Positions 1 through 486 of a DNA stretch of 486 nt are shown here, one piece after another; positions within the stretch are counted from its first letter, which is position 1; each line of letters begins with the position of its first letter. A model generated the notes under the pieces. That model searched no databases and was not told the origin of the DNA. It saw only the letters and a program-made list of their open reading frames with translations. Source of the stretch: Escherichia coli (GTDB lineage Bacteria > Pseudomonadota > Gammaproteobacteria > Enterobacterales > Enterobacteriaceae); the NCBI RefSeq assembly GCF_003334405.1, contig NZ_QOWM01000064.1; one strand, 5' to 3'. The position numbers and the translations under genes were made by a program.

Positions 1-486
1 GAAGCTGCGCAGCGTTTCCCGGTGCAGGCGGTCGCGGGTGTACTCCACCAGCGGTGTGTCGCCGAGTTTCATGCCTGACAGCCAGCCGCTGCCGTAGGTC
101 AGCCATTCCACGGCGGGCAGGCTGTCCGGTATACAGCGGTTCGCCAGTCCCTGTGCGTTGTACGCATGTCTGGTCTCATGCTGCCAGAGCAGTGCTTCCG
201 TCTGCGGATGATGCACCGTCAGGTGTTCACTGGCGAGGCGGCCTTTACTGTCATAACCATAGTGCACCGTCACCCGGTGCCCTTCGCTGATATGGCTGAT
301 GTCTGTCAGCCAGCCGCGTTCGTCATACTGCCACCGCTCTGCGGTTTCGCCATTCACGGTGCGGTGCGTGAGGCGGTCTGCTTCGTCATAGTGCCAGTGG
401 GTGACCAGCCCCTCATCCTCGCTGCGGATAAGTTTGCCGGTCAGGTCGTGGTGATAACGCTGTGTGCGGCCGTCAAAGCCGGTTTC
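1..486 (-). CDS. Rhs-family YD-repeat protein, internal fragment of the conserved core (partial at both ends)
   Basis: Minus-strand frame with codons ending at + position 486 is open across the whole window (162 codons, no stop; translated by hand). The product has periodic YD-type motifs (RYHHDLTGKLI, WHYDEADRLT, WQYDERGWLT, HYGYDSKGRLAS, VEYTRDRL) spaced about 21-24 residues apart. GC is about 62% (301/486 by hand count). The paralog (rhsA/B/C/D-like) cannot be assigned from 486 bp, so no symbol is given. Confidence 0.88.
25..48 (-). repeat. YD-like repeat unit, degenerate (protein-level): VEYTRDRL
   Basis: Minus-strand codons gtg gag tac acc cgc gac cgc ctg. Tyr and Asp are separated by two residues, followed by RL, and the unit is in phase with the repeat periodicity. 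Confidence 0.45.
45..52 (-). other. Chi octamer (5'-GCTGGTGG-3') on the minus strand
   Basis: Plus strand 45..52 reads CCACCAGC, the exact reverse complement of GCTGGTGG. The match is exact; whether it functions as a RecBCD hotspot depends on the host, which is unknown. Confidence 0.5.
235..264 (-). repeat. YD repeat unit, canonical (protein-level): HYGYDSKGRL, matching YxYDxxGRL
   Basis: Minus-strand codons cac tat ggt tat gac agt aaa ggc cgc ctc. The plus-strand GTCATA at 250..255 is the reverse complement of TAT GAC (Tyr-Asp). Confidence 0.8.
304..333 (-). repeat. YD repeat unit (protein-level): WQYDERGWLT
   Basis: Minus-strand codons tgg cag tat gac gaa cgc ggc tgg ctg aca. Plus-strand GTCATA at 322..327 encodes the YD. 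Confidence 0.7.
367..396 (-). repeat. YD repeat unit, diverged (protein-level): WHYDEADRLT
   Basis: Minus-strand codons tgg cac tat gac gaa gca gac cgc ctc acg. Plus-strand GTCATA at 385..390 encodes the YD. Asp replaces the consensus Gly before RL. Confidence 0.65.
427..459 (-). repeat. YD-like repeat unit, degenerate (protein-level): RYHHDLTGKLI
   Basis: Minus-strand codons cgt tat cac cac gac ctg acc ggc aaa ctt atc. Matches a Y-x-x-D-x-x-G-x-L-I pattern, in phase with the ~22-residue periodicity of the other units. Confidence 0.5.

Follow-up and report, generated by a model that had tools for sequence, protein, structure and literature searches.

A Chi octamer in an rhs core gene of Escherichia coli is very probably an ordinary by-product of Leu-Val codons

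An Rhs core fragment with one Chi octamer on its sense strand

The 486-base stretch of E. coli DNA analyzed here (referred to as the window) lies within a single reading frame (Table 1). Frame 0 of the minus strand is open across all 486 bases and has a YD-repeat translation (ETGFDGRTQRYHHDLTGKL...PLVEYTRDRLHRETLRSF), which was matched twice by the Pfam family RHS_repeat (PF05593; E = 2.8e-5 and 1.3e-3). The window corresponds to nt 1999-2484 of K-12 rhsC, with 99.4% identity; identity to the other K-12 genes is 94.2% for rhsA and rhsB, 81% for rhsE, and 79% for rhsD. Of 5,426 complete E. coli genomes, 3,881 contain homologues of the window, 11,208 in all (median, 3 per genome), and RefSeq names the homologous stretches rhsA, rhsB, rhsC, or "RHS element core protein." A preliminary description of this DNA had assigned the ORF to Rhs, and the assignment holds on the evidence of the Pfam repeats, the RefSeq rhsC annotation, and the near identity to K-12 rhsC.

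The GC content of the window is 62%, compared to 50-52% in the regions flanking the K-12 rhs genes. In K-12 rhsC, the sequence PISNIDPLGL at aa 1238 (outside the window) fits the PxxxxDPxGL motif of the core end, and identity between rhsC and rhsA stops at nt 3744. With the core-end motif judged on this K-12 homologue, the window ORF has the sequence characteristics expected of an Rhs/YD-repeat polymorphic toxin core. Two plus-strand ORFs, at positions 54-290 (78 aa) and 299-391 (30 aa), were set aside as artefacts on the antisense strand of a GC-rich gene, the minus-strand frame being fully open and matching RhsC. An Rfam scan (E <= 1) found no overlapping RNA in the window.

Table 1. Features of the window and state of the homologous codons in related rhs genes
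Feature	Position	Strand	Sequence or state	Basis
Rhs (YD-repeat) core ORF fragment	1..486	minus	RhsC residues 667-828, open at both ends	Frame, Pfam, identity
Codons spelling Chi	43..54	minus	CCG CTG GTG GAG (Pro-Leu-Val-Glu)	Translation, codon-phase check
Exact Chi octamer	45..52	minus	5'-GCTGGTGG-3'; K-12 rhsC gene nt 2433-2440	Exact match; BLAST to K-12 rhsC
GAAGC patch	194..198	minus	Sense codons GAA GCA (Glu-Ala); AAT GAA (Asn-Glu) in K-12 rhsC	Column-by-column comparison
Homologous codons, rhsD			GCTGGTCG; silent Val change, peptide PLVEYTRD kept; Chi lost	
Homologous codons, rhsE			GCTGCTGG; Val to Leu; Chi lost	
Homologous codons, E. albertii			CCA CTG GTT; synonymous Val change, peptide kept; Chi lost	
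Homologous codons, rhsD-like contigs			CTG GTC; Chi lost	
Homologous codons, Citrobacter youngae			CCG CTG GTG G; Chi present; 74% identity	

An exact-match search of the whole window returned a single copy of the E. coli-type Chi sequence GCTGGTGG, on the minus strand at positions 45-52, where the plus strand reads CCACCAGC. The strand that carries Chi is the sense strand of the Rhs core ORF. Both the octamer and its strand had been described correctly from the letters alone, as the sequence match and the open frame confirm. We refer to this site as Chi-2433, after its position in K-12 rhsC.

One such octamer is unexceptional in a stretch of this length. When the window was shuffled, at least one Chi match appeared in 8 of 200 trials, and at the actual density in E. 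coli (1008 Chi in 4.64 Mb), 9.9% of 486-base windows would contain one. We conclude that a single Chi in a 486-base window is not above chance for E. coli; the evidence favors the cautious half of the preliminary description, which allowed that chance may equally account for one octamer in a GC-rich gene.

The octamer begins at the third position of a codon, in the frame xxG-CTG-GTG-Gxx. Host codon usage was computed over 135 kb of coding sequence, comprising 95 long ORFs in the flanks of the K-12 rhs loci; under this usage, the probability that Pro-Leu-Val-Glu is spelled with Chi is 0.11. The same codon phase was seen for 20 of the 21 sense-strand Chi in those ordinary host ORFs. According to published genome-wide counts, 99% of the 1008 Chi lie in ORFs, and of these 79% are on the coding strand and 68% are in the CTG-GTG frame; the authors of those counts considered Chi frequency to be accounted for by codon usage. 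We attribute the presence of Chi in the Rhs core to Pro-Leu-Val-Glu being written in the commonest codons of the host. By comparison with the canonical chromosomal Chi of E. coli (1008 in MG1655), the rhs site has the same octamer, lies likewise in an ORF on the coding strand and in the CTG-GTG frame, and shows no substantive difference. Its one peculiarity is that it is present in 2 to 4 paralogous copies per genome, of which those in rhsA and rhsB lie in the opposite replichore and have the minority orientation.

Two patches in the window have a mosaic appearance. The only three mismatches between the window and K-12 rhsC fall in positions 194-198, where the window has the rhsA/rhsB state and the flanking markers are of the rhsC type. 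The 86-mer around this patch had no exact match among complete E. coli genomes, the best being 98.8% identical, and over the whole window none of these genomes exceeded 99.4% identity. The patch may be either a short gene conversion or an ancestral allele. Separately, 18 of the 28 differences between the rhsC type and rhsA/rhsB are concentrated within ~63 bases (window positions ~208-270, sense nt 217-279 of the window, rhsC nt 2215-2277), and in many of the differing columns the distant rhsD has the rhsA/rhsB base. This pattern suggests that the rhsC-type patch is a mosaic segment that was locally imported or derived.

Chi density and conservation in rhs cores

The preliminary description proposed that a Chi site within a multicopy core could promote recombination between rhs paralogs. 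On one such reading, the core Chi are kept by selection and channel RecBCD-processed breaks into RecA-mediated exchange between paralogs, giving rise to hotspot behavior. We examined both strands of five 50-kb regions, each surrounding one K-12 rhs locus. As selection would have it, rhsA, rhsB, and rhsC each have two co-oriented Chi (nt 633 and nt 2433), which share a codon phase; both lie on the sense strand, and the antisense strand has no Chi. The second site lies outside the window, 1.8 kb upstream in the core (K-12 rhsC nt 633), and is spelled GGG CTG GTG GAC (Gly-Leu-Val-Asp). Against such selection, K-12 rhsD (4.28 kb) and rhsE (2.05 kb) have no Chi.

The flanks contain 54 Chi in 231 kb (0.234/kb), compared to 0.48/kb in the rhsA/B/C cores, and the Poisson probability of at least two Chi in 4.19 kb at the flank density is 0.26. 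Because the three genes are 97-99% identical, their sites constitute one evolutionary observation rather than three. Four mutually divergent full-length cores, a set that also includes those of E. albertii (4.2 kb; no Chi) and Citrobacter youngae (one Chi), together have 3 Chi, with 3.9 expected at the flank density. The cross-species cores came from a scan with a codon-degenerate TPLVEYTRD pattern, a small sample of only 7 loci, one of which (L013) was discarded as a chance match and four of which were short contigs assigned to unrelated taxa.

A nominal excess was seen under a different null. Synonymous resampling that preserves the protein predicts 0.25 sense Chi per core with host codon usage (P = 0.02) and ~0.56-0.6 with the usage of the gene itself (P = 0.09). 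Ordinary host ORFs also exceed this null, by 2.0-fold on the sense strand and 6.9-fold on the antisense strand, and since ordinary genes exceed it likewise, the rhs excess vanishes. Hence, Chi density in rhs cores is no different from that in the flanks and the genome, and we did not find the elevation above background that Chi-promoted exchange would lead one to look for.

Conservation of the octamer is extensive within the rhsA/B/C lineage. Among the 11,208 E. coli copies, at least 7,978 (at least 71%) contain an exact 28- to 30-mer, and both Chi are found in all 7 full-length E. coli cores (down to 92.6% identity in the window) and in one rhsA/B-like contig. Presence in every rhsA/B/C-type core sampled would suit selection, and the question is how much retention is expected without it. 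When the seven cores were aligned, no variation was seen at 82% of the 591 four-fold sites or in 54% of all octamers of the same phase. Chi conservation thus equals that of other four-fold sites; the probability that all six third-codon positions within the two octamers would be unchanged is ~0.31. Judged on this alignment, retention of both Chi in the lineage is what drift would predict. Elsewhere the nt 2433 site has been lost silently, in rhsD and E. albertii, with the encoded peptide kept (Table 1). Synonymous-site conservation beyond the neutral level was therefore not observed, and the idea that the octamer is specially kept in rhs is not borne out.

Enterobacterial rhs core sequence was also found on short contigs filed under Frankia tisae and under metagenome-assembled genomes of Collinsella, Akkermansia muciniphila, and Oscillospiraceae. 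Relative to the window, two of these contigs are 97% (L009) and 94% (L012) identical, and the other two (L010 and L011) are rhsD-like, with ~76-78% identity. The occurrence of rhs contigs under unrelated taxa most likely reflects E. coli contamination or mis-binning.

Orientation of rhs Chi relative to gene and replication

In K-12, the plus strand carries all five rhs genes, and oriC is at 3,925,744-3,925,975. The flanks of rhsC, rhsD, and rhsE have a positive GC skew on the plus strand, and those of rhsA and rhsB have a negative one; from these signs, we assigned rhsC to the clockwise replichore and both rhsA and rhsB to the counterclockwise replichore. Among rhsA, rhsB, and rhsC, only rhsC has Chi co-oriented with the leading strand, and the sites of rhsA and rhsB are anti-oriented. 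In the 50-kb region around rhsA, the only plus-strand Chi are the two within rhsA itself, and there are five on the minus strand.

Chi is read by RecBCD from its 3' side only. Thus, the rhsC Chi face RecBCD arriving from a collapsed fork, and those of rhsA and rhsB face away. We conclude that Chi orientation follows the gene and not replication. A consistent productive orientation across rhs copies was not found: for fork-derived ends, the rhsA and rhsB sites have the unproductive orientation. This argues against selection for exchange, since rhsA and rhsB are the classic recombining pair.

In addition, rhsA and rhsB are transcribed head-on to replication. Both rhs regions have a positive skew, opposite in sign to the skew of the flanks; this pattern fits DNA that is foreign or was relocated recently.

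Selection for Chi in a hotspot role has been proposed for the Chi clusters near the ends of phage P1 and its relatives (bioRxiv 10.1101/2021.07.08.451572). The octamer is the same and likewise acts on RecBCD. In contrast to the P1 clusters, Chi density in the rhs core is at background, and both rhs sites are in the coding frame. The rhs Chi thus lack all three marks of a selected cluster, namely, elevated density, synonymous conservation, and consistent orientation.

RecBCD, paralog exchange, and the role of Chi-2433

The host side of the earlier interpretation stands. The window is nearly identical to K-12 rhsC, its homologues are widespread in E. coli, and K-12 carries recB, recC, and recD, in agreement with a host within Escherichia or Shigella that has an E. 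coli-type RecBCD. The history of the locus is also borne out: Rhs elements were named for a recA-dependent unequal crossover between rhsA and rhsB that was selected via glyS duplication (Lin, Capage and Hill 1984, as summarized in PMC2935791). The window lies within the 3.7-kb core that supplies the homology for this exchange, full-length paralogs being 97% identical up to nt 3744. Long, near-identical direct repeats suffice to explain the rearrangement, and no role of Chi and no link between Chi or RecBCD and Rhs was found in the literature searched.

The octamer probably arose in a single event in an rhsA/B/C-type core lineage and would have spread, together with the nt 633 site, by descent and gene conversion. 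RecBCD entering at a double-strand end 3' of the gene would degrade the DNA back to nt 2433, and at Chi-2433 RecA would be loaded on the sense strand 5' of the site. The RecA-loaded DNA, nt 1-2433, is common only to full-length cores; its usual partner would be the sister chromosome, and only rarely a paralog. Chi-2433 is probably active like any other Chi, as established RecBCD-Chi biology, from which both activity and direction are taken, would predict. In K-12 rhsC, it is the first co-oriented Chi to be met from an 11.8-kb downstream interval that includes the tip, the orphan, and the ISAs1 region. At rhsB, a further co-oriented Chi lies just downstream, in yhhH. Published maps of RecA loading indicate that chromosomal Chi are used in vivo; reads from the multicopy Rhs sequences were discarded in those maps.

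Chi-2433 is very probably an ordinary E. coli Chi that results from Leu-Val coding, and not an adaptation for rhs rearrangement, because it shows neither enrichment nor preferential conservation and its orientation is not consistent among copies. Three observations run counter to this reading: two sense Chi exceed the expectation from the protein and host codons (P = 0.02), both Chi are present in 8 of 8 rhsA/B/C-type cores inspected, and C. youngae, at 74% identity, has Chi at the same codons. None survives correction for the genome-wide excess of Chi, for the relatedness of the copies, or for the chance of at least 11% per Pro-Leu-Val-Glu.

Selection for paralog exchange can appeal to the first two of these observations, including the nominal excess over the resampling null (P = 0.02-0.09), and also to the recA dependence of the rhsA x rhsB exchange and to the 97% identity between paralogs of the region 5' of nt 2433, on which RecA would be loaded. 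Set against background density, the absence of Chi from the rhsD/E subfamily and E. albertii cores, silent loss of the nt 2433 site, neutral conservation, the wrong-facing sites of rhsA and rhsB, and the silence of the literature searched, such selection is improbable. A related proposal is that the fixed Chi pair nonetheless measurably raises ectopic core x core exchange: RecBCD coming in from the variable and IS-rich 3' side would be converted by Chi into an enzyme that loads RecA, within 2.4 kb of core that is 97% identical, adding to duplications, inversions, and homogenization of paralogs. We regard this effect as similarly improbable.

It is very improbable that the octamer is instead a purely coding by-product that is functionally silent, rarely or never the Chi to which RecBCD responds. 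The anti-orientation of the rhsA and rhsB sites with respect to replication and the prior encounter with the yhhH Chi at rhsB would be expected if the octamer were silent. According to established RecBCD biology, however, activity is determined by nothing but the octamer and the side from which RecBCD approaches; the rhsC site has the correct orientation and is the first Chi met over ~12 kb, and the RecA-loading maps point to use of chromosomal Chi in vivo.

Another possibility is that Chi aids toxin diversification, with a break in the tip or orphan region being resected to the core Chi and followed by displacement of the C-terminal tip through core x orphan recombination. The C-terminal displacement model of Jackson et al. 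(2009; PMC2935791) likewise involves homologous recombination within the core of this family; it invokes RecA and not RecBCD or Chi. Exchanges in that model use the 3' core segment shared with orphans, and all K-12 orphan fragments carry only core sequence from nt 2695 or later, up to nt 3744, which is 3' of Chi-2433. Although the core Chi are oriented toward RecBCD that comes in from the variable 3' end, the rhsC site is the first met from the tip/orphan/ISAs1 interval, and recombination between core fragments is the published route to tip displacement, Chi-2433 cannot feed tip swapping, because every orphan fragment lies on the degraded 3' side and lacks the 5' side where RecA loads; rhsD/E-type loci, moreover, have orphans yet no Chi, and a role for Chi-2433 in tip swapping is ruled out and the broader proposal barely credible.

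With Chi-2433 read as an ordinary, coding-derived Chi, the earlier interpretation stands for the octamer, its strand, the Rhs identity of the ORF, the host, and the history of Rhs as a rearrangement hotspot. What does not stand is a special role for the core Chi in promoting recombination between paralogs, as density and conservation are at background and orientation follows the gene. Chi-driven rearrangement of rhs, if true, would have given a mechanistic explanation for a name that is 40 years old and a way to approach the shuffling of polymorphic-toxin loci. The useful outcome is a negative one: the site is a codon-derived Chi at background density, of a kind that occurs about once per 4.6 kb in E. 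coli. Chi in GC-rich, CTG/GTG-rich enterobacterial genes is unremarkable unless its density, synonymous conservation, or orientation departs from background.
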